This document shows positions 1,171 to 41,801 of a stretch of 41,801 nucleotides of DNA, piece after piece. The stretch covers positions 1 to 41,801 of the forward strand of contig JAENWX010000002.1 of the NCBI GenBank assembly GCA_016649835.1. The letters are read 5' to 3'. The DNA is from Minisyncoccota bacterium. GTDB lineage: Bacteria > Patescibacteriota > Minisyncoccia > Phycocordibacterales > UBA9973. How positions within the stretch are numbered: position 1 is the stretch's first letter; every line of letters begins with the position of its first letter. Under the pieces are notes generated by a model, which was not told the origin of the DNA, did no database searches, and was given only the letters and a program-made list of their open reading frames with translations. A program made the position numbers and the translations under genes.

Positions 1171-1199
1171 GAATTTAAATACGGCAATACAAAAATTAA

Positions 1200-1318
1200 T
1201 TAAAAAATTTAAATAGTCTTATCAAAGGGGCTTGTGAGCGCGTCGGCGCGAACACTGAACGAATTTTCACCAGAAAATTAGTGTACCCTTTGAGAAGAGC
1301 TATTTTAATTTTTAAAAA
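1200..1318 (+). repeat. Family B structured element (long imperfect outer stem plus two inner hairpins)
   Basis: Outer arms TTAAAAAATTTAAATAGTCTTATCAAAGGGG / CCCTTTGAGAAGAGCTATTTTAATTTTTAA. Inner hairpins GCGC-GTCG-GCGC (1238-1249) and AATTTTC-ACCA-GAAAATT (1262-1279). Homologous to 30432-30544 and 30721-30839. Confidence 0.8.
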
Positions 1319-3370: not shown

Positions 3371-3420
3371 TATCTTAGTCCAAAAAAGACAGATATTGTG
3401 TTATGATAAAAAAATATGAG

Positions 3421-3539
3421 TCCCGTTAGAGATGTGCATGTTATCTTTCTAACAGGAGTTTAAGATTTTGGTGAAGTATATATTATTAACAATAATTAAT
3501 CAGACACGTCCCACTTTTGGGGGACTATCTCTAATGGGA
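3421..3539 (+). repeat. Family A cassette copy 1 (inverted-repeat-bounded promoter/leader-like element ending on the A of the PBP start codon)
   Basis: TCCCGTTAGAGAT...ATCTCTAATGGGA; internal hairpin GTCCC/GGGAC at 3508-3525; aligns along its length with the copies at 6303, 22719, 36581 and 41683. Confidence 0.9.
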
Positions 3540-6039: not shown

Positions 6040-6303
6040 CTATTTGATATCAAAAAAATGAATATTAGGGAAAAGAGATTCTAATTTATTTAGAATCTCT
6101 TTTTTGTGCATCAAAATTTCACTTCTAAGCATTGGGGATCCTTTTACATAAATACATCCTCCTTTTATTTTTAGTGAATCATTTTCAATAGGATGAGATA
6201 TCTCTTCTGAAATGGTTTTAATAACCAAATCTCTTAATTCTTCTTTTTCATAAATTATTTTTTTAAATTTATCTAAGAAATTTTTTATATGATTATAATC
6301 CAT
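6040..6303 (-). CDS. Small DUF721/DciA-like protein
   Basis: 87 aa; lies downstream of dnaN as in many bacteria; pattern LKIKGGCIYVKGSPMLRSEI resembles DUF721. Confidence 0.55.
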   Translation of the reverse strand: MDYNHIKNFLDKFKKIIYEKEELRDLVIKTISEEISHPIENDSLKIKGGCIYVKGSPMLRSEILMHKKEILNKLESLFPNIHFFDIK

Positions 6304-6421
6304 CCCATTAGAGATAGGAAGTTATTAAACTTCCATGTCTTATTATTTATTGTTAATAATATGCACTTTATCAAAATTTTAAACTCCTGTTAGCAAGATA
6401 ACATACACATCTCTAACGGGA
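6303..6421 (-). repeat. Family A cassette copy 2
   Basis: Gene-sense TCCCGTTAGAGATGTGTATG...CTATCTCTAATGGGA+TG; hairpin GGAAGTT/AACTTCC at 6317-6334; TTGATA (6369-6374), 17 nt, AATAAA (6346-6351). Confidence 0.9.
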
Positions 6422-6435
6422 CAGGTTTTTTTATA

Positions 6436-6477
6436 AATTAGTAATTATTAATTAGTAATTAGTAATTAGTAATTATT
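6436..6477 (-). repeat. Heptamer array (six units AATTAGT/AATTATT on the + strand, ACTAATT in gene sense) abutting the dnaN stop
   Basis: Read directly; ends one base from the dnaN stop codon (6479-6481). Confidence 0.75.
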
Positions 6478-6478
6478 T

Positions 6479-9826: not shown

Positions 9827-10033
9827 GTGAAAAAAGTAATAATTTGGCTTATAAATATTTACCAAAAAACACCATTAAGGTCCCATTCCTCGTGTGTTTT
9901 TTTGCCAACTTGTTCTGAATACACCAAACAGTCTGTATTTAAATATGGAGCCCTGAGAGGCACTTTACGAGGCATTAAAAGGATTTTACGTTGTCACCCT
10001 TGGCAAAAAAACCACTATGATCCGGTAATATAA
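9827..10033 (+). CDS. yidD: Membrane protein insertion efficiency factor YidD
   Basis: LINIYQ..., CVFLPTCSEY, RCHPW motifs; GTG start. Confidence 0.88.
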   Translation: MKKVIIWLINIYQKTPLRSHSSCVFLPTCSEYTKQSVFKYGALRGTLRGIKRILRCHPWQKNHYDPVI

Positions 10034-10065
10034 TTACCAATTACTAATTAATGATTACTAATTGA
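10031..10065 (+). repeat. Heptamer array TAATTAC CAATTAC TAATTAA TGATTAC TAATTGA starting with the yidD stop codon
   Basis: Read directly; the first TAA is the stop codon. Confidence 0.75.
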
Positions 10066-10150
10066 AAAATAACTACTAATAAGATGACTAAGGGGTAAAA
10101 TTGGGATATAAAAAAACAGGAAAATCAACTTTTTATTTTTTGTCTTCTTG

Positions 10151-10911: not shown

Positions 10912-11379
10912 ATGTATAAAGAAAAAATACAAGAAGCAGTAGAACAAATATTCAAACATTCAGCCTGTACTATTTCTAAATGTGAGTTTTCTGAAGAAAG
11001 TGGAATGCTTTGGTGTATGATAGAAACTCCAGACTCAAACCTTATGATTGGTAGAGAAGGAGAAACACTTCGCTCCCTAAACCACATAGTTCAAAAAATT
11101 GTAGAAAAAGGATTAATAGAAAAAGAAGAAAAAAGGCCAAGTATATTTATTGATATAAATGGATATCAAAAAAAGAGATTTGAAAACTTGAAAAACATAG
11201 CACACATGATGGCTGAGCGCGCTCGTTATTTTAAGAGTAATATTGAAGTAGACCCAATGCCCGCATTTGAAAGAAGAATAATACATATGTTTCTTGAAGG
11301 ACATAAAGATATAAAAACAGAATCAGAGGGTTATGGTCCAACACGAAGAGTTGTTATTAAATATGTAAATAATGACTAA
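10912..11379 (+). CDS. jag: Jag/KhpB-like RNA-binding protein (KH plus R3H)
   Basis: R3H region FERRIIHMFL...GYGPTRRVVIKY; follows yidC. Confidence 0.8.
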   Translation: MYKEKIQEAVEQIFKHSACTISKCEFSEESGMLWCMIETPDSNLMIGREGETLRSLNHIVQKIVEKGLIEKEEKRPSIFIDINGYQKKRFENLKNIAHMMAERARYFKSNIEVDPMPAFERRIIHMFLEGHKDIKTESEGYGPTRRVVIKYVNND

Positions 11380-11386
11380 TTAATGA

Positions 11387-11415
11387 TTAACCCAGAGGGT
11401 GATTCTGTTGAATCA
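11387..11415 (+). repeat. Family C 3' hairpin motif
   Basis: TTAACCCAGAGGGTGATTCTGTTGAATCA, 8 nt after the jag stop. Confidence 0.75.
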
Positions 11416-11427
11416 TAATTACTAATT

Positions 11428-11458
11428 AAAAACACCTAGGCATCGCCTAGGTGTTTTT
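11428..11458. terminator. Bidirectional intrinsic terminator
   Basis: AAAA-ACACCTAGG-CATCG-CCTAGGTGT-TTTT between convergent genes. Confidence 0.85.
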
Positions 11459-11468
11459 AATTGTATTT

Positions 11469-11503
11469 AATTAGTCATTAGTAATTGGTAATAAGTAATT
11501 ATT
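11469..11503 (-). repeat. Heptamer array (AATTAGT CATTAGT AATTGGT AATAAGT AATTATT) overlapping the stop of the 11499 gene
   Basis: Read directly. Confidence 0.7.
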
Positions 11504-13001
11504 TGAGTTTCAACCCCCACAACGATGAATCTTTTTTGTTTATGAAGAATAGATTGCTTTCAGTTTTATCTAAAAATAAATGAGTTGCATCTATTGGAGT
11601 TTCTTTTCGGGAGTTTGCTATTGTTTCCCATTCCCCATTTACTGTATTAATCTTTATAAAATAATCAGTGAATGATGTTAGTCCTTGGTACCAAGAATCC
11701 GGATACTGGTTTCCAACTACAAGGTTTGGAATACCACAATAAACAGAAATACTATCAATACTCCAGACACATTTTTCAGGTAAACCATATTTATCCAAGT
11801 CGGTACTTATATGGTTACTTATATTAAAAATTTGTAGTTTTGGGCCTGTGGCTGTTGATATACTGTATAAAACAAGGGATCCGTTACGGTTTACAAGAGT
11901 AGTAAGGCCGGGAACTCCACCCATTATTTTAGTAGTAGTTTTACTAGATGCATTTAAAAGAAAGATGCTGCCGTTTGACACATATGAGGCTTTGTTTGTT
12001 AAATATATTCTTTGGTTATTGTCTATTTGTGATAACCATTCTGTAAAAGGAGAATTAAATATCATTTCTTTTTTTGTGTTTCCAAAAAAACCTAAGGTGC
12101 CAGCAGAGCCATTACTATTTCCTGTTAGATAAAAAAATTGAGTTTTATTTGGGGAAATACTAAAATCAAAAATATTTTGAGGTAGAAATTCTCCTTTAGG
12201 AGCGCCCAGTGTTGCCACAAAAGTATCAATCACTTTATTTTCAGAAAGATATCTGTAAACTACGGTCTTGCCTGTGCCGTCAAAAATAGCTTCATAAATA
12301 TTTGGAATAGTAGAGTTTGAGATTTTTTCTTTAGACTGTGTGTCTAAAAACATTTTATAAATATGACCATTTGCTCTCTCCACATATCTTATAGAAGGAG
12401 CTTCTTCTGTTTTTTCTGTGGGGATAACATTTTCTGTTGTTGTTGATTTTGTAAAGTAGGGAGCGGTTTCTGCATCTATAATTCCTGTTACTGTTAGACT
12501 GTTTAAAGTTTGAAATTCTTTTACTGCGTCTGTAACTTTCTTTCCAAAAGCTCCATCAACAACAAGTGGTGGACTAAGAGAAAGAGTCTCGTTTAAAATT
12601 TTTTGTATTTCTTTTCTTCCCTCTTTTGTATTTGGAGAGATAACAGTTTTAATAATTTCTTGTTGTGGGGCTACTTCGGCAGTAGTATCAACTACAACAG
12701 GTCTTGTGTCATCTAAAAAGGTCGCTCCAGCAACAGCAAAATCAGTTATTTGGTAAAACCTTGATACAGAAGTACCAGGTGTTTCTTCTCCTGGAAGTTG
12801 ACCGTCTATTGGTATCTCTCCGTCGGGTCCTGTTACCACATCACTACCAGTTCCAAAAGGATTAAAACTTTGGTACCAAGGAGTTGTCTCAGCTACATTC
12901 CCTGCTCCTTTGTCTTTATTCATCCAGAAAAAAACACCAAGGATAATAACTCCGACGAGAACAAATGTTGTTATAAAAATGATTATTGTTTTTTTAGGCA
13001 T
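11499..13001 (-). CDS. Membrane-anchored protein with a peptidoglycan-binding domain and a beta-rich (propeller-like) C-terminal region
   Basis: N-terminal TM; VVDGAFGKKVTDAVKEFQTLNSLTVTGIIDAETAPYF matches the PG_binding_1 pattern; last gene of the secretion-like cluster. Confidence 0.7.
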   Translation of the reverse strand: MPKKTIIIFITTFVLVGVIILGVFFWMNKDKGAGNVAETTPWYQSFNPFGTGSDVVTGPDGEIPIDGQLPGEETPGTSVSRFYQITDFAVAGATFLDDTRPVVVDTTAEVAPQQEIIKTVISPNTKEGRKEIQKILNETLSLSPPLVVDGAFGKKVTDAVKEFQTLNSLTVTGIIDAETAPYFTKSTTTENVIPTEKTEEAPSIRYVERANGHIYKMFLDTQSKEKISNSTIPNIYEAIFDGTGKTVVYRYLSENKVIDTFVATLGAPKGEFLPQNIFDFSISPNKTQFFYLTGNSNGSAGTLGFFGNTKKEMIFNSPFTEWLSQIDNNQRIYLTNKASYVSNGSIFLLNASSKTTTKIMGGVPGLTTLVNRNGSLVLYSISTATGPKLQIFNISNHISTDLDKYGLPEKCVWSIDSISVYCGIPNLVVGNQYPDSWYQGLTSFTDYFIKINTVNGEWETIANSRKETPIDATHLFLDKTESNLFFINKKDSSLWGLKLK

Positions 13002-15290: not shown

Positions 15291-15333
15291 TCCTTATATT
15301 ATATAATAATCTTGTAAACCAAACAACCCGTAA

Positions 15334-15368
15334 TAATTACTAATTACTAATTAATAATTAATAATTAC
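15334..15368. repeat. Heptamer array TAATTAC TAATTAC TAATTAA TAATTAA TAATTAC
   Basis: Read directly; lies between the VirB4-like stop and the next gene start. Confidence 0.7.
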
Positions 15369-15369
15369 A

Positions 15370-15389
15370 AACCTGCCTGCCGGCAGGTT
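15370..15389 (-). terminator. Hairpin AACCTGCC-TGCC-GGCAGGTT downstream of the VirB4-like gene
   Basis: 8-bp GC-rich stem followed in gene sense by T-rich TGTAATTATTAATT; a degenerate copy of the same sequence lies at about 22996-23010. Confidence 0.6.
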
Positions 15390-17930: not shown

Positions 17931-17936
17931 AAAGAT

Positions 17937-17971
17937 AATTACAAATTACTGATTACTAATTACTAATTTAA
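17937..17971. repeat. Heptamer array AATTACA AATTACT GATTACT AATTACT AATTTAA
   Basis: Read directly. Confidence 0.7.
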
Positions 17972-17997
17972 ATTCAAACACTACTAGGTCTATCCTC

Positions 17998-18006: not shown

Positions 18007-18065
18007 TATAATTCTTGATCGGTTTATTAAATATCAATCTTTTTAACCCATTACTAATTATTAAT

Positions 18066-18096
18066 CATGATTCAAAAGAATCACCCCATGGATTAA
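18066..18096 (-). repeat. Family C 3' hairpin motif
   Basis: Gene-sense TTAATCCATGGGGTGATTCTTTTGAATCA just downstream of the PrgI-like stop. Confidence 0.75.
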
Positions 18097-18114
18097 TTGT
18101 TAATTGTTAATTAT

Positions 18115-18534
18115 TTACTTCCCCTCCTCCCCCTTGTCTTGTACATCCAAACTCCAAGATAAATCTTTTAATTTATTTGTAGTTGTCATGGGTACAATAG
18201 ATACCAAAGGAAGAGCAGAAGGTTCCTCTTCTTTACCCTTTGTTCCTGGCTTAACTAGTCTTTGTCTCCAGATGTATAACTTACTTGAAACCAAATAATT
18301 TAGCCCAGCCTCAAGATAAAAAATAAAAGGCTTCTCATTTATTTTATAAAAAACAAGTAGAAAGGTAAGTACTGCAAAAGGAATAATGAAAAAAATACCA
18401 ATCCATAAAGGAAATATTTTATAAAGCACAAAAACTATACCAGCTCCTCCAATAAGGTATATGAACTGACGAAAAGTAAAAGGACCAAATAGTTTATCCT
18501 CAACATCAATAAATTGTGGTACTTTGAATTGCAT
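18115..18534 (-). CDS. PrgI-family (VirB3-like) small membrane protein
   Basis: MQFKVPQFIDVEDKLFGPFTFRQFIYLIGG followed by two TM helices; start moved to the Met at 18534. Confidence 0.7.
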   Translation of the reverse strand: MQFKVPQFIDVEDKLFGPFTFRQFIYLIGGAGIVFVLYKIFPLWIGIFFIIPFAVLTFLLVFYKINEKPFIFYLEAGLNYLVSSKLYIWRQRLVKPGTKGKEEEPSALPLVSIVPMTTTNKLKDLSWSLDVQDKGEEGK

Positions 18535-18558
18535 ATGATAATAATTACTAATTAACAA

Positions 18559-18587
18559 TTAATCCAGGGGGTGATTCTTTTGAATCA
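18559..18587 (+). repeat. Family C hairpin motif (opposite orientation to the flanking genes)
   Basis: TTAATCCAGGGGGTGATTCTTTTGAATCA. Confidence 0.75.
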
Positions 18588-18651
18588 TGATTACTAATTT
18601 AAAAACAATAACACTACTTTAATCTATTATACTATATAAAAACAAAGTTAC

Positions 18652-19023
18652 TTAACGGTTTTCTTTTGTGGTTTTTTGAATTGCAGTTAATAATTTCAAT
18701 ATTATGGTTATTCCCTCGATATAAACATTAAACTCTTCTTGTGTTATATATTTTCCACCCAATAATAATTTTAACCAATATTCAGTTTCCCTAGCCTCTT
18801 TGTATGAAATAGATATTTTTGATATAAAATCATTTCTTGATTGAGCTCCTATTGATTCCTCTATATTTGCCCCAATAGAAGTACCTGATCTTAAAATTTG
18901 CTTAGATAATACAAATTCATTTCTTTTGATAAGTTTTTTATATAATTCAATTATTAATAAAGCAAAATCAAAACTTTTTTGTTGAATTATATTCTCTCTC
19001 ATTATTATTTGTTTTAATTCCAA
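18652..19023 (-). CDS. Four-helix-bundle protein (23S rRNA intervening-sequence protein / Avd-like family)
   Basis: SKQILRSGTSIGANIEES...YKEARETEYWLKLL is the hallmark of this family; the start could instead be the Met at 19002. Confidence 0.85.
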   Translation of the reverse strand: MELKQIIMRENIIQQKSFDFALLIIELYKKLIKRNEFVLSKQILRSGTSIGANIEESIGAQSRNDFISKISISYKEARETEYWLKLLLGGKYITQEEFNVYIEGITIILKLLTAIQKTTKENR

Positions 19024-19057: not shown

Positions 19058-20164
19058 CTAGAACGCTTCTCGATACGGGTCGTTTGATTTAGCTGGAGCT
19101 TCGTGGACTTCTTTTGAAGGGTCAGATATTTTTGGAATAGAATAATCTGTAACAACATGGTCACTCATGGTTACACTTTTAAGTTTTTCATCCATAATGT
19201 TTAAAGGAGCACTTTTTATTTCAGGAGAAATTACAGAAGGTTTTGCTTCCCAAACATCTTTTAACTCATCTTTTTCTATTATATCATTAATTTTTTTAGA
19301 CTCTTCTTGTTTTTCCGATGGAGTTTTTTCATTACTAATTTCTAATCCAACTGCCGGAGAGATAGATTCCTCTTTTTTAATAGTTTCTTCATTAGTAATT
19401 ACTTTTTCATAAGGAGGAACTGGAACTTTTTCTATTTCTATTTCATTATTAATTAGTAATTTGTCATTAGTAATTATTTTACCATAAGGAGGAAGAGGAA
19501 CATCTTCTTGTCCTTCATTTACTCTCATTAATTCTCTTATTTTTAATAAAATAGTATCATTAACATCTTTTATTAGGCTGGAAATATCTTCTCTTGGAAT
19601 TGTAATTTTAGAGATAACCTCACTTTCATATTTACTTGGGTGTGTTTCGTTTTTCATTACTTTAACAGTAATGTCTTCTAAAATCCCCATTTGTTCAATA
19701 TTTAGATTGTAGTCTTTGGATATTTTGTATAGTTTTTCTTTCCAATCAGACCTAGCAACAGCCTCCTGTGTTTCTTTTGGCATACCAATAAAACGAGGGT
19801 CTAAGACCAGGGGTTTGTTTTCAAAAACAGCCTTAGGCGACCTATTTATTTTTTTCTCTAAACCCTCTTGTATTTTTTTAAATATTTTATCATCTAAATC
19901 TTTTAATAAAATAAAAACTCCTTCGTCGTTTAACATTAGTTTTTGTTTTAAGCTTTTTTCATATTCATCTGGAAGTAAAATTCCAGACAATAATAATTCT
20001 GTTTCAGTCACAAGGTCTTCTAGTTGTTCCTCTGTATATTGATCCTTCATTCCTCGGATAATTAACTTCCAGTTAACATCATCAATAGCCTCTCTGCTTT
20101 CTTTTGGAAGTAGGTCTCTAGCCTCGTTAATCTTTATTTGTAGTAAATCTATAGAATTATCCAT
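19058..20164 (-). CDS. Acidic hypothetical protein with duplicated N-terminal module and VP(L/V)PPY(G/E)K(I/V)ITN repeats
   Basis: 368 aa, no TM; internal similarity between about aa 20-105 and 130-215; tandem VPLPPYGKIITND / VPVPPYEKVITNE. Confidence 0.55.
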   Translation of the reverse strand: MDNSIDLLQIKINEARDLLPKESREAIDDVNWKLIIRGMKDQYTEEQLEDLVTETELLLSGILLPDEYEKSLKQKLMLNDEGVFILLKDLDDKIFKKIQEGLEKKINRSPKAVFENKPLVLDPRFIGMPKETQEAVARSDWKEKLYKISKDYNLNIEQMGILEDITVKVMKNETHPSKYESEVISKITIPREDISSLIKDVNDTILLKIRELMRVNEGQEDVPLPPYGKIITNDKLLINNEIEIEKVPVPPYEKVITNEETIKKEESISPAVGLEISNEKTPSEKQEESKKINDIIEKDELKDVWEAKPSVISPEIKSAPLNIMDEKLKSVTMSDHVVTDYSIPKISDPSKEVHEAPAKSNDPYREAF

Positions 20165-20178
20165 TTTGTTTATAAAAA

Positions 20179-22719
20179 TTATTTTTTCTCATCTTTTATT
20201 CCAGCTAAAATTTTGTTTGAAGCTTCTCTTTCTCCCCTAAAAGAATGTTGACCTCCTGAGACTACAAAATTAACGGCCTGTGACCACCCTCCTCTATTTG
20301 AAGCAGCATAATTTTCTCTTGTTGTTCTGTTTTTGGATATAACTGCATTTTCAGCATTTTTAACCAATCTTTCTGCGGCGTTAATTGGGCCTTGGGCATC
20401 TGCAAGGGCCTTTTGAATTCCTTCTAGTTTTTCTCTTGTGCCTCCAGTACCATCTCTTCCTCCAACTCCTTTTACTCCATTAATTAAATCATCTCTAACT
20501 GTTCTTGCTCTTGCTGCTGCCGGTTTATTACCAGAATCAACAGCATCTTTTAATGTTCTTTCTGCTGCTGCAATAGCTCTTTCTGATGCCGCAAGAGCTT
20601 TTTCTGCTCCGCCAATTGCAGCAGTTTGTGTTATTATTTCATCTTGTCTATTTACAGAATTCCCATTTGAATCTGTTATTTTTTGGTTTTTTATAACATC
20701 AAGATTGTTTTGGGCGGCATAAACATTTTGTTTTAGTGGTGAATCTTCTCCCACCTCAAGGTCTTTCATTCTCTTTTGTCTCTTTTCAACATGTTCTGCG
20801 CGTGCTTTTGTAAATCCACCCTCTTTTGCTTTTCCGAGGTCTACACCAAGGCTTTTACCTGCAGCAGCTCCAGCTTTGGTTGCACGAGCATCAAAACTTC
20901 CTTTCCCTGCAGCTGTCCCAGTCTTTAATAGCATCTTTGCTGCAAAACCACCAGGGCCACCCTTTGCCTCCATTGCTTTTAGCCTGTCTGAACTAGCAAC
21001 CGCACTTCCAAGTCTTCCCACTGTACCTCTCATTGCAAATGCTGCACCACCTGTCATTGCTCCAACAGCTAGCCCACCAACAACCCCACCCGCCTTAGAC
21101 AAGGATGCTCCTATTTCACCAGACATACTAACAGCAACGTCTTTTGCCTTCATGAGAAGAATCATAATAAATGCAAATGGAACTATAATTTTTATAATCC
21201 AACCTAATCCGCTAACTATCTCTCCGGTTGGGGTTTTAAATGCATCCATAACTCCTAATCCCTTTCCCATAAATCCAACAATTAAATACATAAAGAAAAC
21301 AAAAACAGGAGCTACAAAAGCCATTTTTAATAAATTGGGCCACCATTCCTTCCACCCAATCATTTTAATTCCTTGCATTTGAGGGACAATATAACTAAAG
21401 AAAGCAAGAGGGGCAACTATCATTGAAAGCCAAAGCATCACAACTCTACCTATAAAAATAAGAGCTGTAGATGTGAAAGCAATGATTCCAACTATGTTAA
21501 CTATTGTTGCGAGAAAAACAATTAAAAAGAAACTAGTAAGTGGAATGTCTCCAGTCATAACATTAGTATTTCCAGTGTCAAAACCCGACGATGCTGGTTT
21601 TGCCCTGCTGATCTCCCTAGAGTTTATGATAAGGTTCTGTGGATTAACGCCTGAAACTATTGCCGTTGATAGTTGAAGTTCTCCATATTCACCAAGCACA
21701 CTTGTAACTTTTGTAGACTTGCCATTCTCGTCTTTTTGGGTAATTATTATAGTTTTATCATTATAAAAAACCCTCGCTAAAATATTGGAGGCATCTATAA
21801 CAACCTGTGTGGTAAATAAACTAAAGTTTATAAGAAGGCCTATAATGACTACGTTGATAATCATTTCTTTTGTCTTAACGCTACTTAGATTTAAAATAGT
21901 ACCAAAAGCTATATAAAGTAAAACGAAAATAAAGAATATATTACTAAAATCTTTTACTACTTCCCATCCACTAGTGACAAATTCTGAACGATAAGCCATG
22001 TCACTAATAGAATAATATAAAGTAAAGTCTAAGGCCTTACCAGCAATAGCAAAAACTGCAGACGTTGTTGCAAAAAATAAATAATAAAATCCTTGAGCTA
22101 AACATCCCATAGGGGTGCCAGGAGCACCCAATAATCCACAAGCTGGAAGAGCTCCAGGGCTTTCTGGCTCAACTCCACCTTCGGCACCAGCATTACCATC
22201 AGGAACTAAATCTTGGTCGTATGTTTTATCTGTGCCAGGATTAATTGTTACAACATTACTGTCTATTCGAACGGAGTCCTTCATAATAACAATTTTTACA
22301 TAGTATTCAATTCCTATTACCGTATCAGCAACAGCTGTGGCATCTGAGTAAGTATTTATTTTTTTAGTAGATATATTATAGGTAGTATATTCTCCTTCAA
22401 CCTTAGAAGGAGAAGAAAAACTAAGATTCTCCGTTCCAACTTTTACACCTCCAAAAGTTTCTTTTGTGCTTACAAAATATAATATTTCAGCACCTGCAAG
22501 CTGGTCCTTTTCTGAGGTCAACATTTTAAGACTTCCCGAAACACTAATTACAGGAGAGTTGTCATTTTGGGTTGCAAAAACAACAAGTGTTTTTTCTGCA
22601 GCATGAGCAGTATTTTTTTGTATTGCTATATTATTTTTTACTCCAGTACCAACAGTAAATGGCGCAAATAATTGCACTACAATAAAAAATATTAGAATGT
22701 ATGGTAAGAATTTTTTCAT
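20179..22719 (-). CDS. Large polytopic membrane protein, VirB6/TrbL-like candidate, with an Ala/Gly/Lys-rich C-terminal tail
   Basis: Signal peptide, about 190-aa extracytoplasmic domain, at least 6 TM helices, about 300-aa low-complexity coiled tail; located next to the PrgI-like and VirB4-like genes. Confidence 0.55.
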   Translation of the reverse strand: MKKFLPYILIFFIVVQLFAPFTVGTGVKNNIAIQKNTAHAAEKTLVVFATQNDNSPVISVSGSLKMLTSEKDQLAGAEILYFVSTKETFGGVKVGTENLSFSSPSKVEGEYTTYNISTKKINTYSDATAVADTVIGIEYYVKIVIMKDSVRIDSNVVTINPGTDKTYDQDLVPDGNAGAEGGVEPESPGALPACGLLGAPGTPMGCLAQGFYYLFFATTSAVFAIAGKALDFTLYYSISDMAYRSEFVTSGWEVVKDFSNIFFIFVLLYIAFGTILNLSSVKTKEMIINVVIIGLLINFSLFTTQVVIDASNILARVFYNDKTIIITQKDENGKSTKVTSVLGEYGELQLSTAIVSGVNPQNLIINSREISRAKPASSGFDTGNTNVMTGDIPLTSFFLIVFLATIVNIVGIIAFTSTALIFIGRVVMLWLSMIVAPLAFFSYIVPQMQGIKMIGWKEWWPNLLKMAFVAPVFVFFMYLIVGFMGKGLGVMDAFKTPTGEIVSGLGWIIKIIVPFAFIMILLMKAKDVAVSMSGEIGASLSKAGGVVGGLAVGAMTGGAAFAMRGTVGRLGSAVASSDRLKAMEAKGGPGGFAAKMLLKTGTAAGKGSFDARATKAGAAAGKSLGVDLGKAKEGGFTKARAEHVEKRQKRMKDLEVGEDSPLKQNVYAAQNNLDVIKNQKITDSNGNSVNRQDEIITQTAAIGGAEKALAASERAIAAAERTLKDAVDSGNKPAAARARTVRDDLINGVKGVGGRDGTGGTREKLEGIQKALADAQGPINAAERLVKNAENAVISKNRTTRENYAASNRGGWSQAVNFVVSGGQHSFRGEREASNKILAGIKDEKK

Positions 22720-22832
22720 CCCGTTAGAGATAGTCCCTCAAAGATGGGACGTGTTTGTTTTTGTTAATAATATCTACTTTATCAAAACTTGAAACTCCTG
22801 CTAGAAAGATAACATGCACATCTCTAATGGGA
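22719..22832 (-). repeat. Family A cassette copy 3
   Basis: Gene-sense TCCCATTAGAGATGTGCATG...CTATCTCTAACGGGA+TG; hairpin GTCCC/GGGAC at 22733-22750. Confidence 0.9.
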
Positions 22833-22896: not shown

Positions 22897-23033
22897 TTTA
22901 CTTTTAAACCTCGTTTACGTTATCTTTTTTTATAACAAAGCTCTTTTATTATAACAAATTTTCTATAAAACCTTCATTTTTAAAACTTTTTTCTTAACCT
23001 GCCTGCTGGTTATTAATAAGTAATTAGTAATTG

Positions 23034-23062
23034 TGATTCAACAGAATCACCCTATGGGTTAA
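23034..23062 (-). repeat. Family C 3' hairpin motif
   Basis: Gene-sense TTAACCCATAGGGTGATTCTGTTGAATCA downstream of the 23078 stop. Confidence 0.75.
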
Positions 23063-23077
23063 TCATTAATTACTTTC

Positions 23078-30431: not shown

Positions 30432-30544
30432 TTGGTTTTTAAATAGCTCTTCCCAAGGGGTACGGATATTTTTCTGCTGAAAAATTCCTCGTGCTCGGCT
30501 CGACAGCCTCCCAAGTCCCCTTGATAAGACTATTTAAAAACCAA
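30432..30544 (-). repeat. Family B structured element (inverted relative to the copy at 1200)
   Basis: Reverse complement reads AAATAGTCTTATCAAGGGGACTTGGGAGGCTGTCGAGCCGAGCACGAGGAATTTTTCAGCAGAAAAATATCCGTACCCCTTGGGAAGAGCTATTT. Confidence 0.85.
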
Positions 30545-33182: not shown

Positions 33183-34301
33183 ATGATGAAAATATCGTTA
33201 TTTTACAAGCCTTCTATTATAAAGGTTTGTTCTGTTTTATTGATGACATCTTTTATTGCGGGGAATCCATTAATAGCCGATGCTAACTGGATTACAGATT
33301 TTTTTACTGGAGGAAAGGTTCAGGCTAGTGACGAAGGTATCATAGAGGTTAGCAGTATTGCTTTTAACTCACAAAATATAGATCTTTTTAATTCTGAATC
33401 AGCTGTAAACCCTGACCGTAAAAATAGCAGTGAAGCAAGTGACATGTTGATAGTTCAAGATGACTCATTTATTTATACGGAAAGTCTTTTTGTTCCAGAT
33501 GCTAAATTTGAAAAGAGTTCAATATCTGAACAGATAAGTGTTTATACTGTCGAAAAAAACGACACCCTTTCAGAAATAGCAGAAAAATTTAATATTTCTA
33601 CAAATACTATTCGTTGGGAAAATAATATTTCAGGTCAAACAATAAAAGAAGGACAAAAGCTTAATATTCTTCCTGTTACTGGTGTAAAACACATAGTTAA
33701 AAGTGGAGATACTTTAGGTAAAATAGTAGATAAATACGACGCAGAAATGGAAGACGTAGAAATCTTTAATGGTATTTTAAAAGGAGATGCACTTAAACCT
33801 GGTGATATAATTTTCGTTCCTAACGGTATTATTAAGCCAGTTGTAGTTGTAAGCACAAAAACATCTGTTTCAAGTAAAACAGCAACAGTAGCATCAAACA
33901 CAAAAGTTCAATCAGGATATTATATAAGACCAACGACGGGAATAGTGACTTCTCCTTATGGTCCAAGACGCGGAGGATTTCATTATGGAGTAGATATAGG
34001 AAACAAGAGAGGGACACCAATAGTTGCAGCTGCCTCGGGTATAGTTGTTAAAGTTATAAGTGGTTGTGTAGAAGGAAATTCAAGATGCGGTGGAGGCTAT
34101 GGGAATTATATTGAAATACAGCATTCAAATGGGACAAAGACTACTTATGCTCACTTGGGTAAAGTTTCTGTAAAATATGGTCAAACAGTTTCTGTTGGAG
34201 GGCAGATTGGTACAATTGGTAATACGGGTAGATCTACTGGTCCACACCTTCACTTTGAAATAGAAAATATAAACGGTTCAAAAATGAGACCTTCGTTTTA
34301 G
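33183..34301 (+). CDS. Secreted LysM-LysM-M23 peptidoglycan endopeptidase
   Basis: Signal peptide; two LysM repeats (YTVEKNDTLSEIAEKF..., HIVKSGDTLGKIVDKY...); M23 motifs HYGVDI and GPHLHFEI; preceded by AGAGGA-6 nt-ATG. Confidence 0.92.
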   Translation: MMKISLFYKPSIIKVCSVLLMTSFIAGNPLIADANWITDFFTGGKVQASDEGIIEVSSIAFNSQNIDLFNSESAVNPDRKNSSEASDMLIVQDDSFIYTESLFVPDAKFEKSSISEQISVYTVEKNDTLSEIAEKFNISTNTIRWENNISGQTIKEGQKLNILPVTGVKHIVKSGDTLGKIVDKYDAEMEDVEIFNGILKGDALKPGDIIFVPNGIIKPVVVVSTKTSVSSKTATVASNTKVQSGYYIRPTTGIVTSPYGPRRGGFHYGVDIGNKRGTPIVAAASGIVVKVISGCVEGNSRCGGGYGNYIEIQHSNGTKTTYAHLGKVSVKYGQTVSVGGQIGTIGNTGRSTGPHLHFEIENINGSKMRPSF

Positions 34302-34302
34302 A

Positions 34303-34337
34303 TAATTACTAATTACCAATTAATAATTACTAATTTA
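34303..34337 (+). repeat. Heptamer array TAATTAC TAATTAC CAATTAA TAATTAC TAATTTA directly after the stop codon
   Basis: Read directly. Confidence 0.75.
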
Positions 34338-34347
34338 AAAATACAAA

Positions 34348-34381: not shown

Positions 34382-34445
34382 ATTAGAGCTATCTGTTTAA
34401 ATTTCAGACTTTTTTAAATGCAGATATCAATTTTAATTGGTGTGC

Positions 34446-34480
34446 GTAATTTAATTAGTAATTGGTAATCAGTAATTATT
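34446..34480 (-). repeat. Heptamer array (AATTAGT AATTGGT AATCAGT AATTATT) overlapping the comM stop
   Basis: Read directly. Confidence 0.7.
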
Positions 34481-36050
34481 AATTCATCTCCCTCGGTCTA
34501 TATTGCAGCGCCTCCAATATGTGATTTGAGGAAATATTTTCAATACCTTCTAAGTCGCAAATAGTTCTAGCTAGCTTAATAGTACGATGATATGCACGAG
34601 CAGAAAGCTGTAATCTCTCCGCACTCGTATTTAATAATTTTTTTGTTTCATCACTAAGTGGCGCATAAATATTTAATTCTTTCACATTTATTTCACTGTT
34701 GGTATTTATTTTTCTTGTAGAATTTTTAAATCTTTTTGTTTGAATTTCTCGAGCATTTTTTACTCGTGTTTTTATATTGATTGTTTTATCTCCTTCTTGT
34801 GTATCATCTGATAATTTTTCATAATCAACATTTCCAACTGTAACCCAAATATCAATACGGTCCATTATGGGTCCAGATAATTTTCTTTTATATCTATCTA
34901 GGTCACTTGGTTTACAAATGCATTGTTTTTGTTTGTTACCTTTATTTCCACAAGGGCATGGATTCATTGCTGCTACTAAAATAAAATTTGATGGAAAAAT
35001 AGCGGAACCTTTTGCTCTTGATATTGAAATTATATTATCTTCAAGAGGTTGTCTTAGTGATTCTAAAACTCGTTTTTCAAATTCTGGAAATTCATCTAAA
35101 AATAGTACACCCTTGTGAGCAAGTGTAACTTCTCCTGGTTTTGGGTTTACTCCACCACCTATCATAGAGACATAACTTGCTGTATGGTGTGGCGCACGAA
35201 AAGGAGATTCTGTTATTAGTGCATCGTCTAGTAGCCCCACAACAGAGTGAATACCTGTAATTTCTAAACAATCATCCTTGCTTAAGTTTGGAAGTATTTG
35301 AGAAAACACTCGAGCAAGCATTGTTTTACCTGTGCCAGGAGGGCCAGACATAGCTATGTTGTGCCCACCTGCAGCAGCTATTTCAAGCCCACGCTTAGCA
35401 CCTTCTCGACCTTTGATATCAGAAAAATCAATACCACCAGTTTTTTCTTCATGGCTAATTTCAGTAGTTGGAACTGGTGTTAGCTTCGGTCTTTCTTTTT
35501 CTAGTGGTTTATTGTTTTTATCTTTCTTTATAATATAAATATGGTCTATTACTTCTTTCAAATTTTTTACACCATAAACTTTTATATCTTCTACTAGCGC
35601 CGCCTCTTTTGCGTTTTCAAATGGTAAATATATTTCTTTATAGCCAAGTTTCTTTGCCATTTCGGTTAGAGGTAGAGCGCCTTTAATAGGACGAAGCTCT
35701 CCGTTGAGAGACAGTTCTCCTAGAAAAATTCTACCATCTGGATTAAAATTTATTTCTTCTGCTGAAAGTAGATACGCAAGTGCGATGGCTAAGTCAAAAT
35801 ACGGACCCTCTTTTTTTATATCTGCAGGAGAAAGAGATATTACTATTTTTTGGTTTTGATTTTTAGGTGATTTAAATCCAGAATTTTTTAAAGCAGAACT
35901 CATTCGGTCTTTTGATTCGCCCACAGCTTTATCCGGGAGTCCAACCAGGGTAAAAGAATGCAAAGTTTTCTTTGTGATGTCTACTTCGACTGCAACGACC
36001 TTACCTTTAAGTAAATGAGTTTGAGCTGAATAAATTCTTGAGAATGACAT
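34479..36050 (-). CDS. comM: YifB/ComM-family Mg-chelatase-like AAA+ ATPase
   Basis: Lon-like N-domain, GPPGTGKTM, VLFLDEFPEF, CPCG zinc motif. Confidence 0.9.
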   Translation of the reverse strand: MSFSRIYSAQTHLLKGKVVAVEVDITKKTLHSFTLVGLPDKAVGESKDRMSSALKNSGFKSPKNQNQKIVISLSPADIKKEGPYFDLAIALAYLLSAEEINFNPDGRIFLGELSLNGELRPIKGALPLTEMAKKLGYKEIYLPFENAKEAALVEDIKVYGVKNLKEVIDHIYIIKKDKNNKPLEKERPKLTPVPTTEISHEEKTGGIDFSDIKGREGAKRGLEIAAAGGHNIAMSGPPGTGKTMLARVFSQILPNLSKDDCLEITGIHSVVGLLDDALITESPFRAPHHTASYVSMIGGGVNPKPGEVTLAHKGVLFLDEFPEFEKRVLESLRQPLEDNIISISRAKGSAIFPSNFILVAAMNPCPCGNKGNKQKQCICKPSDLDRYKRKLSGPIMDRIDIWVTVGNVDYEKLSDDTQEGDKTINIKTRVKNAREIQTKRFKNSTRKINTNSEINVKELNIYAPLSDETKKLLNTSAERLQLSARAYHRTIKLARTICDLEGIENISSNHILEALQYRPREMN

Positions 36051-36096: not shown

Positions 36097-36459
36097 TTAA
36101 AAAATCTTTTCCATACAGTCTTTACAAGTAAGTGCTGCTGGGTTAGCTTCTAATCTATCTTCTTCAATTTTTTTGTTACACTTTTCACAAATTCCATAAC
36201 CTTCCCCGTCTATTTTTACTAAGGCTTTGTTGATGTCGCCTAGTCTTGTTTCTAGTGAATTTAATTTAATAGAACGTTCTTCGTAGTCAGCATTTCTTTC
36301 TGCCATATCAGCTTCATCTTGAACTTCTTGAGTATTCATTTCAGACTCTGGGACTGCTTCCCAATCACCTGTTTCGTCTACTTTACCAAGAGAACCCAAC
36401 TCCTCTTTTAGTAGTTTTTTTTCTTCTTCTAATTTTGTTTTATAAAAATTTAAATTCAT
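36097..36459 (-). CDS. DksA/TraR-family C4 zinc-finger protein
   Basis: Coiled-coil N-terminal part plus CEKCNKKIEEDRLEANPAALTCKDC. Confidence 0.8.
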   Translation of the reverse strand: MNLNFYKTKLEEEKKLLKEELGSLGKVDETGDWEAVPESEMNTQEVQDEADMAERNADYEERSIKLNSLETRLGDINKALVKIDGEGYGICEKCNKKIEEDRLEANPAALTCKDCMEKIF

Positions 36460-36576
36460 CCCGTTAGAAGCAGGTCGCGGTCAGTTTAAAACTAACTTTA
36501 ATCTACTTATGTTAAATTAATTAATATTTTTCTTTTATATTCCCATTATTTACTGCGACCGCGGCTTCTAACGGGA
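36459..36576 (-). repeat. Family A variant copy (same termini, unrelated interior)
   Basis: Gene-sense TCCCGTTAGAAGCCGCGGTCGCAG...CTGACCGCGACCTGCTTCTAACGGGA+TG; AT-rich interior has no similarity to canonical copies. Confidence 0.8.
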
Positions 36577-36580
36577 TTCA

Positions 36581-36699
36581 TCCCGTTAGAGATAGTTCCC
36601 CAAAGGTGGAACGTATCTTATTAATTATTGTTAATAATATCTACTTTATTAAAACTTTAAATTCCTGTTAGAAAAATAACATACATATCTCTAACGGGA
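36581..36699 (-). repeat. Family A cassette copy (canonical; second unit of the tandem array)
   Basis: Aligns over its full length with the other canonical copies; hairpin GTTCC/GGAAC at 36595-36612; flanked on both sides by TTCA (gene-sense TGAA). Confidence 0.9.
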
Positions 36700-36703
36700 T
36701 TCA

Positions 36704-36760
36704 TTTGGTTATAGATAGTCCGTATTTACACGGAACAAATCTGATTATTTTTAATGCAAT
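36704..36760 (-). repeat. Degenerate partial family A copy (ATG-proximal half only)
   Basis: TTTGGTTATAGATAG-TCCGTATTTACACGGAAC-AAATCTGATTATTTTTAAT aligns with TCCCGTTAGAGATAG-hairpin-GTATCTTATTAATTATTGTTAAT. Confidence 0.6.
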
Positions 36761-36862
36761 TACGCTACCCAATACTACGAGATTTACATATAAATCTATT
36801 TAGCTATTTATATATTAACAATTAATATAATAAATAACAATAATTAACAATAATTAACCAAG

Positions 36863-37744
36863 CTAAACATTCTTTATTAGCAAACGAGATATTACCTCTT
36901 TGAGTGTTTCAATGTTGCTTGTAATTACAAAATTATTTTTATTAACAAAAACATAGTAAAGCAAATCCTCTCCGTTTAGTCCATACAGCACTCTGGCGTC
37001 TTTGTTGTTTACAACAATATCACTCCACTTCTTCTCTAGGAGACTATAGTTTGATTCTGTAATATTTATACCAAATAAAACATTTAAATCTTTCAGCAGA
37101 TTGCCTTCCCAGTCGAGCATAGATGCATAGGCTTGGTTGTAGTCTGTTGTTTGAAAAATTAAAAAAACAGTAGAACCATCACCTCCACTTAAAATATTTT
37201 TATTTGAATATTTTCCTAAGAGATATTTATCAGACAGTGACCGAGTTAAAGCACCTGGCACACTTGCTCCTGTTAACGTTAGAAAGTTTTTTGAGGTTAT
37301 TATTTGAGATACCTCCAAATTTTTTGTTGCTAGAAATAGAGCTTTTATTAAACCGGGTGCCACTGGAGGAACATTTTGAACTATTGTGGATAGGTCGTTA
37401 ATATTTTTAACCGAGCTTGCATCAATATTTGAATATGAATCATAAGTAATAAAAGTATCTATTTCTTTTGTTATCACAGGAGCTTGGGTCTCATTTCTTT
37501 TTTGAATCAAAAAATACGAGCCAAAAATTGCAGCTGCTATTAACAAAACACCTCCAATAATCAAAAAAGTTTTTGAAGTGTTTGTTCCTTCTGCTTCTTT
37601 ATATAACTGTTCTTGCTCTCGCTTTTCTTTTTCTGCTAGGGCAATTTTAATAACCGACATCTCGTTGGTTCGAATAGCATCAGCCATATCGGAAGTATAT
37701 GTTCTAAGAACTTTATTATTTGGTTGTTTTTTATTTTCTTCCAT
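36863..37744 (-). CDS. Membrane-anchored hypothetical protein
   Basis: 293 aa; cytoplasmic N-terminus, one TM (FLIIGGVLLIAAAIFGSYFLI), extracytoplasmic domain; no named family recognised. Confidence 0.6.
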   Translation of the reverse strand: MEENKKQPNNKVLRTYTSDMADAIRTNEMSVIKIALAEKEKREQEQLYKEAEGTNTSKTFLIIGGVLLIAAAIFGSYFLIQKRNETQAPVITKEIDTFITYDSYSNIDASSVKNINDLSTIVQNVPPVAPGLIKALFLATKNLEVSQIITSKNFLTLTGASVPGALTRSLSDKYLLGKYSNKNILSGGDGSTVFLIFQTTDYNQAYASMLDWEGNLLKDLNVLFGINITESNYSLLEKKWSDIVVNNKDARVLYGLNGEDLLYYVFVNKNNFVITSNIETLKEVISRLLIKNV

Positions 37745-41176: not shown

Positions 41177-41683
41177 TTAGTAAATTAAATATTTACGATA
41201 GTTGTTTGATAAATCCAAAAAGTCATCTGCGTGTTCTTTGAGCTTCATTGAAGCACTTTTACCAAAAGATACAACTTCCACTTGAACCCCAGAGGTACTC
41301 TGTAAGTATTCTACTAGAGGAACAAAATCCCCATCCCCTGCTACTAAAACTACGGCGTCGAGCTTGGGAGCCATCTTCATTGCATCCACAGCTAGTCCGA
41401 CATCCCAGTCACCCTTTTTGGCACCACCAGCAAAAATTTGTAATTCTTTTGTTTTAGTTTCTATTCCTAATTTTGTTAGAGCATCAAAAAAATTTTTTTC
41501 TTCTCCTCCTTCACTTGTTATAACATAGGCTATTGCACGGACTAGTTTTCGTCCAGCAACAGCATCTTTTAAAACTGCTCCAAAATTAACTTTTCTCTTA
41601 TATAAATTTTTAGCAGAGTGATATAGATTTGATGTATCTATAAATACTCCAACTCTCTGTTCTTTATGTTTAATTATACTCAT
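41177..41683 (-). CDS. NYN-domain (LabA-like) protein
   Basis: VGVFIDTSNLYHSAK and VLVAGDGDFVPLV motifs. Confidence 0.8.
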   Translation of the reverse strand: MSIIKHKEQRVGVFIDTSNLYHSAKNLYKRKVNFGAVLKDAVAGRKLVRAIAYVITSEGGEEKNFFDALTKLGIETKTKELQIFAGGAKKGDWDVGLAVDAMKMAPKLDAVVLVAGDGDFVPLVEYLQSTSGVQVEVVSFGKSASMKLKEHADDFLDLSNNYRKYLIY

Positions 41684-41801
41684 CCCGTTAGAGATAGGAA
41701 GTTATTAAACTTCCGTATCTAATTAATTTTAGTTAATAATATCTACTTTATCAAAATCTTAAACTCCTGTTAGCAAGATAACATACACATCTCTAACGGG
41801 A
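41683..41801 (-). repeat. Family A cassette copy (distal end coincides with the window edge)
   Basis: Nearly identical to copy 2, including hairpin GGAAGTT/AACTTCC (41697-41714); TTGATA-17 nt-TAAAAT. Confidence 0.9.

Follow-up and report, generated by a model that had tools for sequence, protein, structure and literature searches.

Stacked miniature elements at a dksA start codon and a Patescibacteria family of start-codon insertions with GIY-YIG-encoding parents

The interval directly upstream of a dksA/TraR-like gene on contig JAENWX010000002.1 of a Minisyncoccota bacterium (the whole stretch of 41,801 nt that was analysed is hereafter referred to as the window) is occupied on the minus strand by three abutting elements (36459-36811), a decayed copy F followed by copies D and E. 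Comparison with related loci and with many further copies indicates, with a probability that we put at about 80%, that this stack arose through three successive insertions of MITEs (miniature transposable elements with inverted repeats) belonging to a Patescibacteria family that targets start codons and has longer, GIY-YIG-encoding parents. The compared element borders put the insertion point after the A and before the TG of a start codon, and show a 4-bp duplication (TGNN) and a rebuilt ATG. Structurally, the family consists of MITEs together with a very small insertion-sequence-like parent, whose open reading frame (ORF), as read from the aligned copies, runs from an orphaned host ATG to a stop at an ATGA overlap or a TAA-N4-ATG junction and is co-oriented with the host gene.

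The dksA-locus stack and its empty alleles

Coordinates of the window elements are given in gene sense, which means the minus strand for all copies except copy A on the plus strand. The components of the stack are listed here from the host promoter to the host gene, with slashes in sequence motifs marking element borders.

36812..36840, minus strand: putative sigma70-type host promoter of the dksA/TraR-like gene (-35 TTGTTA at 36840-36835, 17-nt spacer, -10 TAATAT at 36817-36812), a function predicted from consensus only
36704..36811, minus strand: copy F, an old decayed element with a recognisable 3' half (36760-36704) that ends in ...ACGGACTATCTATAACCAAA
36700..36703, minus strand: TGAA junction between F and D, a copy of the target-site duplication
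36581..36699, minus strand: copy D, a family-1 non-autonomous element of 119 nt with ends TCCCGTTAGAGAT...ATCTCTAACGGGA, missing from the closest relative (L121)
36577..36580, minus strand: TGAA junction between D and E
36459..36576, minus strand: copy E, a family-2 non-autonomous element of 118 nt (TCCCGTTAGAAGC CGCGGTCGC ... GACCGCGACCTGC TTCTAACGGGA), missing from L121
36097..36459, minus strand: host gene encoding a 120-aa DksA/TraR C4 zinc-finger protein (Pfam PF01258)

Every junction in the stack reads GGGA/TGAA/TCCC, and the triple tandem arrangement described in an earlier note on this DNA is borne out by the minus-strand reading of 36459-36811. The dksA/TraR-like ORF starts at 36459 with ATGAAT (TGAATTT...), its A being the last base of copy E, and dksA orthologs in conserved synteny likewise start with ATGAAT; judged from these borders, the dksA ATG is rebuilt from the terminal A of E and a duplicated TG. 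The terminal A of copy F forms, with the TG that follows it, an orphan ATG (36704-36702). The upstream neighbour across the stack-bearing spacer is a 293-aa ORF. For the DksA protein of the window, no other record was found. Copy D has perfect 13-nt inverted ends and a hairpin (GTTCC...GGAAC) ending 14 nt from its 3' end. Copy E, closed by a predicted stem (z = -6.8), shares only the termini TCCCGTTAGAAGC/GCTTCTAACGGGA with D, as the note had stated; it is not an oddity, being a member of a second widespread family with 37 copies among 120 oriented elements.

Synteny around the gene (NYN, PNPase, a 29x-aa gene, dksA, ComM) is kept in relatives, and the empty and filled sites that the note had proposed seeking among them were found. 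Loci L128-L132 and L274/275, from two further lineages, carry no element, their spacer of 38-39 nt reading TTGTCA-N17-TAATAT, 6-7 nt and ATGAAT, while L121-L127 and L273 carry one old copy and the window three. The copy is decayed in L124-L127, L122/123 and L273, in some of which an orphan ATGAA remains 6 nt past the -10 box. At the site of copy F itself, the copies in L122, L124 and L273 are less or differently decayed and no element is present in L128 or L274. Copy F, which had been taken for a half copy, is an old full copy with a decayed 5' half, the entire 36811-36704 interval being missing from the empty alleles.

The closest relative, L121 (DksA protein 89% identical, spacer ~95% identical), has copy F at ~95% identity. 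It reads CCAAATGAATTTAAAT where the window reads CCAAATGAA, D, TGAA, E and TGAATTTAAAT, so that exactly D, TGAA, E and TGAA are missing. Because L121 carries F and lacks both D and E, the latter two are later insertions into an ATGAA.

A family of elements at start codons

Genomes (one per species) were scanned with the pattern TCCCRTTAGAR-N(88-116)-YTCTAAYGGGA, which demands no ATG. The scan yielded at least 120 loci, nearly all in metagenome-assembled genomes of Patescibacteria/CPR (Candidate Phyla Radiation) of varied lineages and G+C contents. A metagenome scan for parents, with the same termini spaced 240-270 nt, also yielded at least 120 loci. Both scans needed intact termini, so the proportions given below describe young copies only, and neither sample is a census; element statistics refer to the matches listed (at least 120 genome loci) plus the window. 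No matches to the elements were found on viral contigs.

The collection comprises 143 elements of 112-123 nt, with length peaks at 117 and 120 nt, bounded by perfect 11-13 bp inverted repeats (TCCCGTTAGAG(AT)/(AT)CTCTAACGGGA; consensus TCCCGTTAGAR...YTCTAACGGGA). In 120 of the 143, the element abuts an ATG opening an ORF of at least 50 codons (ORF-based start calls are approximate), and most of the others belong to stacks as their upstream members. Identical 4-nt flanks were counted for 84 of 119 elements, against ~33 of 119 when flank partners are shuffled. The flanking 4-mers are TGAA (63), TGGA (20), TGAG (19), TGCG (5), TGCA (4) and others, and 35 of the 56 non-TGAA sites still have matching flanks, which answers in the affirmative whether flank repeats exceed start-codon context. 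The base preceding the upstream flank copy is A in 90 elements and G in 3. The A of the rebuilt ATG is thus supplied by the element, because three orphans are GTG while the codon rebuilt opposite them is ATG. These flanks and the GTG orphans support the earlier proposal of insertion at A/TGAA with a 4-bp duplication and an ATG remade by the terminal A. The MITE-like character suggested there is likewise supported by empty sites, flank duplications and a longer element with the same termini. Terminal inverted repeats, a short target duplication, empty and filled sites and small multicopy units devoid of their own enzyme gene are all present, as expected of MITEs.

Two families with unrelated interiors are distinguishable. 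Family 1 has a 7-bp hairpin ending 14 nt from the 3' end and maintained via many compensatory changes; its G:T and T:G wobble pairs, at 19 and 15, give no verdict on RNA versus DNA action. In family 2, which includes copy E, CGCGGTCGC...GACCGCGACCTGC adjoin the repeats. Among the matches listed, all 37 oriented family-2 elements are in the sense of the host gene, as are 50 family-1 elements, with 12 antisense.

Since the elements stand directly 5' of a start codon, they could be read as a fixed cis-regulatory leader RNA (riboswitch, attenuator or thermosensor) that happens to be tandemly duplicated at dksA. The two repeats are predicted to pair in a 14-15 bp stem that sequesters the A of the AUG, and the compensatory changes between copies in the 3' hairpin would suit such a role. 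Against this, neither a gathering-threshold Rfam search of the entire window nor an E-value search of 36300-36900 returned anything meaningful, the two families have dissimilar interiors, 12 copies of family 1 stand in inverted orientation and the host genes are functionally unrelated. Moreover, the unit is missing from orthologous loci of close relatives, where a single TGAA is left, and copy F, L122 and L273 show it decaying in place beside a gene that persists. The empty sites contradict a fixed leader, and we rejected this explanation as very improbable.

In the same loci, free ATG(AA, GA or AG) sites were counted 357 times at ORF starts, 1,232 times in intergenic regions (an overestimate) and 4,771 times in coding sequence, and despite the few free start sites ~90% of elements lie at starts. 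The two bases after TG are AA, GA or AG (RR) in 86% of element sites, against 37-44% of background gene starts. The RR enrichment and the bias to starts together point to a sequence preference (A/TGRR) combined with a positional one. Stacks were also found elsewhere, with 13 abutting pairs in 12 of 273 loci, 11 of them separated by a 4-nt spacer that is TGAA in 10. Stacking is expected of start-codon insertions, because each would leave two ATGAA sites open to new ones.

A minority of copies lie in other contexts. Those in L047, L064, L068, L075, L083 and L099 are flanked by TAAA, TAAG or TAA instead of TGNN, some of them near TATAA-like boxes. In L018, L022, L073, L103 and L111 the left flank is (A/G)ACTTG with no duplication, and window copy B has CCTG at this position (6421-6426). 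Such contexts might stem from different targets, from an orphan that was partly deleted or from copies recombining with each other. A ~310-nt composite in L086 (7264-7580) resembles an element within an element, with inner ends CCCCGTTAGAAAT...ATTTCTAACGGGG; because it looks nested, insertions do not seem strictly limited to start codons.

Elsewhere in the window, the 10-nt terminus TCCCGTTAGA (at most one mismatch) occurs 16 times against 1.5 expected, a number that none of 100 shuffles reached. Counting all loci, the window holds five intact and two decayed copies, and elements occupy five of its gene starts. The copies outside the dksA stack are as follows.

3421..3539, plus strand: copy A, family 1; orphan ATGAG at 3416-3420; followed by TGAAAC, with the rebuilt ATG of a penicillin-binding protein gene at 3539
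6303..6421, minus strand: copy B, family 1, before an 87-aa ORF (6303-6040); flanks CCTG/TGGA
22719..22832, minus strand: copy C, a 114-nt family-1 element that precedes an 846-aa gene of a type IV secretion cluster; followed by TGAAAA
22837..22940, minus strand: copy C', a decayed family-2 element stacked 5' of C across a TGAA junction, its 5' boundary an estimate
41683..41801, minus strand: copy G, family 1, before an NYN-domain gene (ATGAGT)

The contexts that the earlier note gave for these copies (TGAA after A and C, TGAG before A, CCTG/TGGA at B) are as it claimed. A TGTTATGAT motif sits 8 nt 5' of the orphan ATG of copy A. In copy C, the frame of the orphan ATG is open through the entire element to a TAA within the 3' inverted repeat. 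Copy C' retains an intact 3' end (GGCCTGATTCTAACGGGA) and has a 5' repeat decayed to CTTTGTTATAA. The window and its contig end exactly at the first base of copy G (window end, 41792-41801), where the assembly was probably broken by the repeat.

Parent elements encoding a GIY-YIG nuclease

A lone terminus in L012 proved to close an ORF whose frame crosses the hairpin and the 3' repeat and enters the host ATG, and tblastn led to a complete unit in L085, made up of a 5' repeat, 5 nt and an 84-codon GIY-YIG ORF (278 bp in total) whose final codons and stop (…TCC TAT CTC TAA) lie within the 3' repeat. Such parent elements (265-285 bp, with modes at 277 and 280 bp; individual examples in L085, L133, L143 and L152) have termini as in the MITEs and are at least as abundant. 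Their sole ORF, spanning the unit from repeat to repeat, encodes an 84-95 aa GIY-YIG (UPF0213/Slx1-like) nuclease. Where the earlier note had recommended looking for a transposase gene bounded by the same termini, an element with these termini and coding capacity exists, and it encodes a GIY-YIG nuclease in place of a classical transposase. That note did not foresee the spread over many Patescibacteria lineages, the strict co-orientation with the host or a parent ORF read from the host start codon. Within the window no GIY-YIG gene was found.

Parents occupy the same kind of site as the MITEs. A host ORF adjoins 104 of the 120 matches listed. Of 100 parents, 63 have a perfect (4/4) duplication, preceded by A 62 times and by G once, and TGAA accounts for 53 of 62 parent-element sites. 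In fetched contigs of homologs, the gene ends 4 nt before the next gene in each case, with the duplication visible, and L143 reads TACAAT ACTAGA ATGGA, the element and then TGGAAATTC.

The GIY-YIG ORF is intact in 92 of 100 parents and lies in the sense of the host gene in 95, never antisense. In 48 of the 100, the frame of the orphan ATG is open through both repeats to a TGA overlapping the rebuilt ATG (ATGA), and in a further 4 to a TAA. This open frame reads MNPVRD...GIY-YIG...GMGKRYLKNRLKRFLSLTG, with M-N/D/S-P-V-R-D across the 5' repeat and ...RFLSLTG across the 3' repeat. The commonest form (277 or 280 bp) opens its frame with the orphan host ATG and closes it with the TGA of the duplicated TGAA; in another form the ORF stops at a TAA inside the 3' repeat, 4 nt before the ATG. 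Gene callers accordingly report 92-aa forms starting with MDPVRD, MNPVRD or MSPVRD, which mirror the duplications TGGA, TGAA and TGAG.

Homologs of the protein are very numerous and 80-100% identical across Patescibacteria. Pfam PF01541 is on record for all homologs among the matches listed (at least 120), and conservation is at least 90-95% for the motifs Y-x-Y, YTG, RKR, H, YYE and NR. A PDB sequence search matched 1ZG2 (E = 4e-8). The predicted model (pLDDT, a per-residue confidence score, 87.6) has the beta-beta-alpha-beta-alpha-alpha topology, the protein shows the superfamily hallmarks of GIY and YIG motifs, catalytic Arg, His, Glu and Asn and a three-stranded sheet with helices, and the model's best fold matches are UPF0213 proteins (1ZG2, 1YWL) followed by Slx1 (7CQ2, 6SEH, 4XLG), with I-TevI reaching only E ~0.9. 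Where enough flank was available, 125 of 130 GIY-YIG matches of the subfamily bear both termini, in a sample mostly selected for termini, and the five exceptions are distant paralogs.

Several features connect MITEs with parents, which share their terminal 14-19 nt. Short ORFs in family-1 MITEs end in ...SYL* or ...SYF* (the asterisk denoting the stop), like the parental ...GASYL*. A relative of the window organism has a parent in L152, a locus of the genome that also holds L122; the last 19 nt of this parent equal those of copy G and match copy B at 18 of 19 positions. Family-2 ends occur in only two elements of 265-285 bp, at least one of which (L176) has no ORF.

Two GIY-YIG paralogs with 41-44% identity, in L011 (2229-2420, minus strand) and L015 (6612-6770, plus strand), have no such inverted repeats and adjoin tRNA genes, the former lying between duplicated 5' fragments of a tRNA gene. 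These may represent a separate insertion class that targets tRNA genes.

Being the only ORF and filling the element, the GIY-YIG protein is most simply the enzyme that mobilises the elements, a role suggested by their layout and without precedent. Inverted repeats with a short duplication are the classic signature of a DDE transposase, and the units could instead be classical MITEs moved in trans by such an enzyme, with the GIY-YIG gene as a passenger, addiction or defence gene. The duplication of 3-5 bp (mode 4) fits this alternative, as does the scarcity of clear GIY-YIG parents for family-2 MITEs. We know of no GIY-YIG nuclease that catalyses strand transfer or integrates DNA, and we found no paper linking GIY-YIG proteins to an inverted-repeat, duplication-forming transposon. 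However, ~1.7 Mb of fetched loci, which had been picked for their short elements, contained no element longer than 285 bp and no lone terminus beside a transposase-like or otherwise large ORF, and terminus pairs 260-8000 nt apart were absent from the fetched loci except as nested or decayed copies. The GIY-YIG ORF also leaves no space for another gene, is nearly always intact and never antisense, and subfamily members in this mostly terminus-selected sample almost always bear both termini. Judged from these loci, the elements are not DDE insertion sequences, and mobilisation in trans by a DDE transposase is in our judgement unlikely.

GIY-YIG enzymes are typical homing nucleases, and a second alternative invokes homing-like spread, in which the nuclease would cut ATGRR starts and repair would copy the filled site via microhomology, the apparent duplication being this microhomology. 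The predominance of TGAA at parent-element sites and a duplication length that ranges from 3 to 5 bp are compatible with it. However, unrelated genes serve as hosts (those for a penicillin-binding protein, dksA, NYN and type IV secretion ATPases among others), so that templates would share only 4-5 bp, and many different duplications occur, each with matching copies on either side of its element. The protein consists of the 84-aa catalytic core with no added DNA-binding domain, and its nearest folds are those of structure-specific Slx1, I-TevI being a marginal match. With an NCBIfam group I intron endonuclease model scoring 20-22 bits against a cut-off of 56, a GIY-YIG homing gene was rejected, and we regard homing-like spread as quite improbable.

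Candidate mechanism, related systems and further repeats

Under the preferred reading, that of start-codon insertion by MITEs with GIY-YIG-encoding parents, an element integrates by preference at A/TGAA, A/TGAG or A/TGGA and duplicates TGNN, as the sequences show. An orphan ATGNN is left upstream, and the terminal A of the element with the duplicated TG rebuilds the host ATG. Each insertion creates two ATGAA sites, from which tandem stacks with GGGA/TGAA/TCCC junctions result. The GIY-YIG protein would mobilise both parents and MITEs, and excision would be expected to leave ATGAATGAA or a single ATGAA as a footprint. If the targets are leaderless, the host promoter would transcribe the element from the orphan A and translation would begin at the host start codon, with ribosomes initiating at the orphan AUG and opening the 14-15 bp repeat stem. 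Host protein would then be made by termination-reinitiation at ATGA or TAA-N4-ATG, and many MITEs keep an open frame ending there. Co-orientation and the restriction to start codons may reflect enzyme targeting plus selection.

Judged from sequence context, many of the target genes may be leaderless. In 31 of 62 parent-element sites, a distance of 5-8 nt separates the end of a TANNNT hexamer from the orphan ATG, MITE sites peak at 6 nt, and a Shine-Dalgarno (SD)-like 4-mer is present in 4 of the 62. The leaderless reading fits this scarcity of SD motifs, the TANNNT at 6 nt and the lack of the anti-SD motif that is reported for about half of Parcubacteria (PMC9297842). In MITEs, the frame ending at the repeat TAA has no stop in 43 elements, compared with 5 and 18 in the other sense frames and with 15, 21 and 14 in the antisense frames, and 29 of 91 MITEs have an unbroken frame from the orphan ATG to the TAA junction. 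Other sources of expression were considered and rejected. A promoter in the 3' repeat would read TATCTC-N7-A, which has no conserved last T of the -10 box, and an SD in the same repeat would have its GGGA abutting the ATG with no spacing. An internal promoter with a leaderless mini-ORF (TATAAT 6-7 nt before an internal ATG in some copies) is inconsistent in spacing, and the open frame in MITEs is more readily accounted for if they descend from the parental ORF or mimic it.

Several observations weigh against this account, among them the DDE-like signature and the lack of precedent for DNA integration by GIY-YIG enzymes noted above. The duplication is missing or imperfect in ~30% of copies and 3 or 5 bp long in ~8%, and window copy B has none. 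A few scan matches come from contigs that bear a WOR-3 or Gammaproteobacteria label. A recognisable -10 box at leaderless distance is present in only about half of the sites, and part of the stop depletion in MITEs could be left over from the parental ORF instead of being a sign of selection. Copies A, D and E in the window have no open frame up to the host ATG; coupling would for this reason not be the sole route of host expression, and SD-independent internal initiation must also work in these organisms.

A further reading holds the 265-285 bp elements to be autonomous, with the 84-95 aa Slx1-like GIY-YIG protein as the sole enzyme of a new prokaryotic transposon class that targets start codons, probably leaderless ones, and that would be the smallest self-mobilising DNA element known. 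It would borrow promoter, ATG and stop from the host and repay it with a rebuilt ATG and coupled translation, and the window cassettes would be its non-autonomous offspring. We consider the odds of this reading to be even. We found no description of such an element in open-access papers and bioRxiv, and papers on rRNA insertions in CPR bacteria mention GIY-YIG proteins in another context only. A 2024 review of prokaryotic MITEs mentions neither start-codon insertion nor GIY-YIG proteins nor Patescibacteria (PMC10969869).

Bacterial MITEs such as the Neisseria Correia/NEMIS elements and MITEAba12 are alike in their ~100-150 bp, terminal inverted repeats, short duplication and many copies, in being gene-adjacent and co-transcribed, and in interiors that are unlike the parent except at the ends. 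The elements described here differ in that the target is a start codon rebuilt by the last base, nearly all copies lie at starts with biased orientation, and the candidate parent encodes a GIY-YIG nuclease and not a DDE transposase. Rickettsia palindromic elements are also small palindromes tolerated in expressed genes via an open frame (PMC10969869), but these enter ORFs and the host protein, whereas here the element stays outside and translation would be handed on at ATGA or TAA-N4-ATG. Homing genes such as I-TevI and phage T4 Seg are similar in being selfish genes with a GIY-YIG nuclease as sole product. They have no inverted repeats or duplication, carry a separate DNA-binding domain, recognise long cognate sites and rely on homologous repair into the same locus, whereas a bare 84-aa core with a marginal fold match to I-TevI is found here before unrelated genes.

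The best sequence and fold matches of the parent protein are UPF0213/YhbQ and the Slx1 nuclease domain. Slx1 is a eukaryotic repair enzyme that acts with Slx4, and its cutting of branched DNA and stem-loops would fit an element folding back on its inverted repeats. To our knowledge, UPF0213 proteins have no assigned function and have not been described as mobile. The IS200/IS605, PATE and REP/RAYT systems resemble the present elements in small size, a structure-conserved subterminal hairpin, tetranucleotide preference and strand or orientation bias. Those elements, however, have neither terminal inverted repeats nor a duplication, and their right-end tetranucleotide is fixed by the element, while here the 4-mer varies and matches on both sides. 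IS200/IS605-like single-strand transposition, including PATE, was rejected in view of the perfect inverted repeats and the co-variation of the flanking 4-mer on both sides. The junction palindrome GTTAGAG/CTCTAAC recalls integron attC or Xer-type sites; its order is the reverse of the attC RYYYAAC...GTTRRRY, with a variable 4-nt spacer and a location before core genes, and this candidate too was rejected on reading the sequence. Should the targets be leaderless, elements would insert no more than a few bases from a transcription start, a parallel to yeast Ty3 at RNA polymerase III starts, although Ty3 is a eukaryotic long terminal repeat retrotransposon targeted via TFIIIB and nothing here points to an interaction with RNA polymerase. 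Four features, as deduced from the sequences, appear to set the family apart from every described one that we found: a start-codon target with rebuilt ATG, a parent ORF through both repeats with a host ATG and a duplication-derived stop, strict co-orientation, and a GIY-YIG nuclease as the only protein.

Insertion of this kind would constitute a new persistence route for mobile DNA in compact genomes with few dispensable genes, the element site being the one position where a 4-bp duplication and one element base restore the gene while host start signals express the element. If the GIY-YIG protein does mobilise the family, it would represent a new catalytic class of transposon, and the lower size limit of an autonomous element would be ~278 bp. 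Annotation is affected as well, since orphan ATGs and fusion ORFs of 92-95 aa are already called as genes and contigs break at copies. The family offers a natural handle on SD-independent, leaderless and re-initiation translation in Patescibacteria, and could serve as a compact, site-specific insertion tool.

The window contains further repeats. Two G+C-rich units of ~100 nt stand directly before ruvC (1196-1300, plus strand) and ksgA/rsmA (30440-30540, minus strand). They have imperfect inverted ends (AAATAGTCTTATCAAAGGGG...CCCTTTGAGAAGAGCTATTT), a compensatory inner stem (GCGC-GTCG-GCGC versus GGCT-GTCG-AGCC) and no Rfam match, and would be either palindromic elements of a second kind or structured leaders positioned at gene starts. 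A palindromic repeat of 52-60 nt, with the core GATTCTGTTGAATC in TAATTA-rich arms, occurs four times (18056-18115, 18540-18599, 11377-11428 and 23021-23072). Two of its copies, inverted and 93% complementary, enclose a PrgI-like ORF (18115-18558) within the type IV secretion cluster, and the repeat may be another small repeat family or a terminator module. The same cluster includes, distant from rRNA genes, a gene for a '23S rRNA-intervening sequence protein' (18652-19023, minus strand; PF05635, E = 1.6e-28). Finally, runs of AATTAGT/AATTACT-type heptamers (TAATTAGTAATTA...) are present in at least nine intergenic spots, mostly at gene ends (1108-1147, 6423-6478, 10028-10067, 11449-11504, 15331-15370, 17933-17972, 19424-19479, 34300-34339 and 34426-34481).

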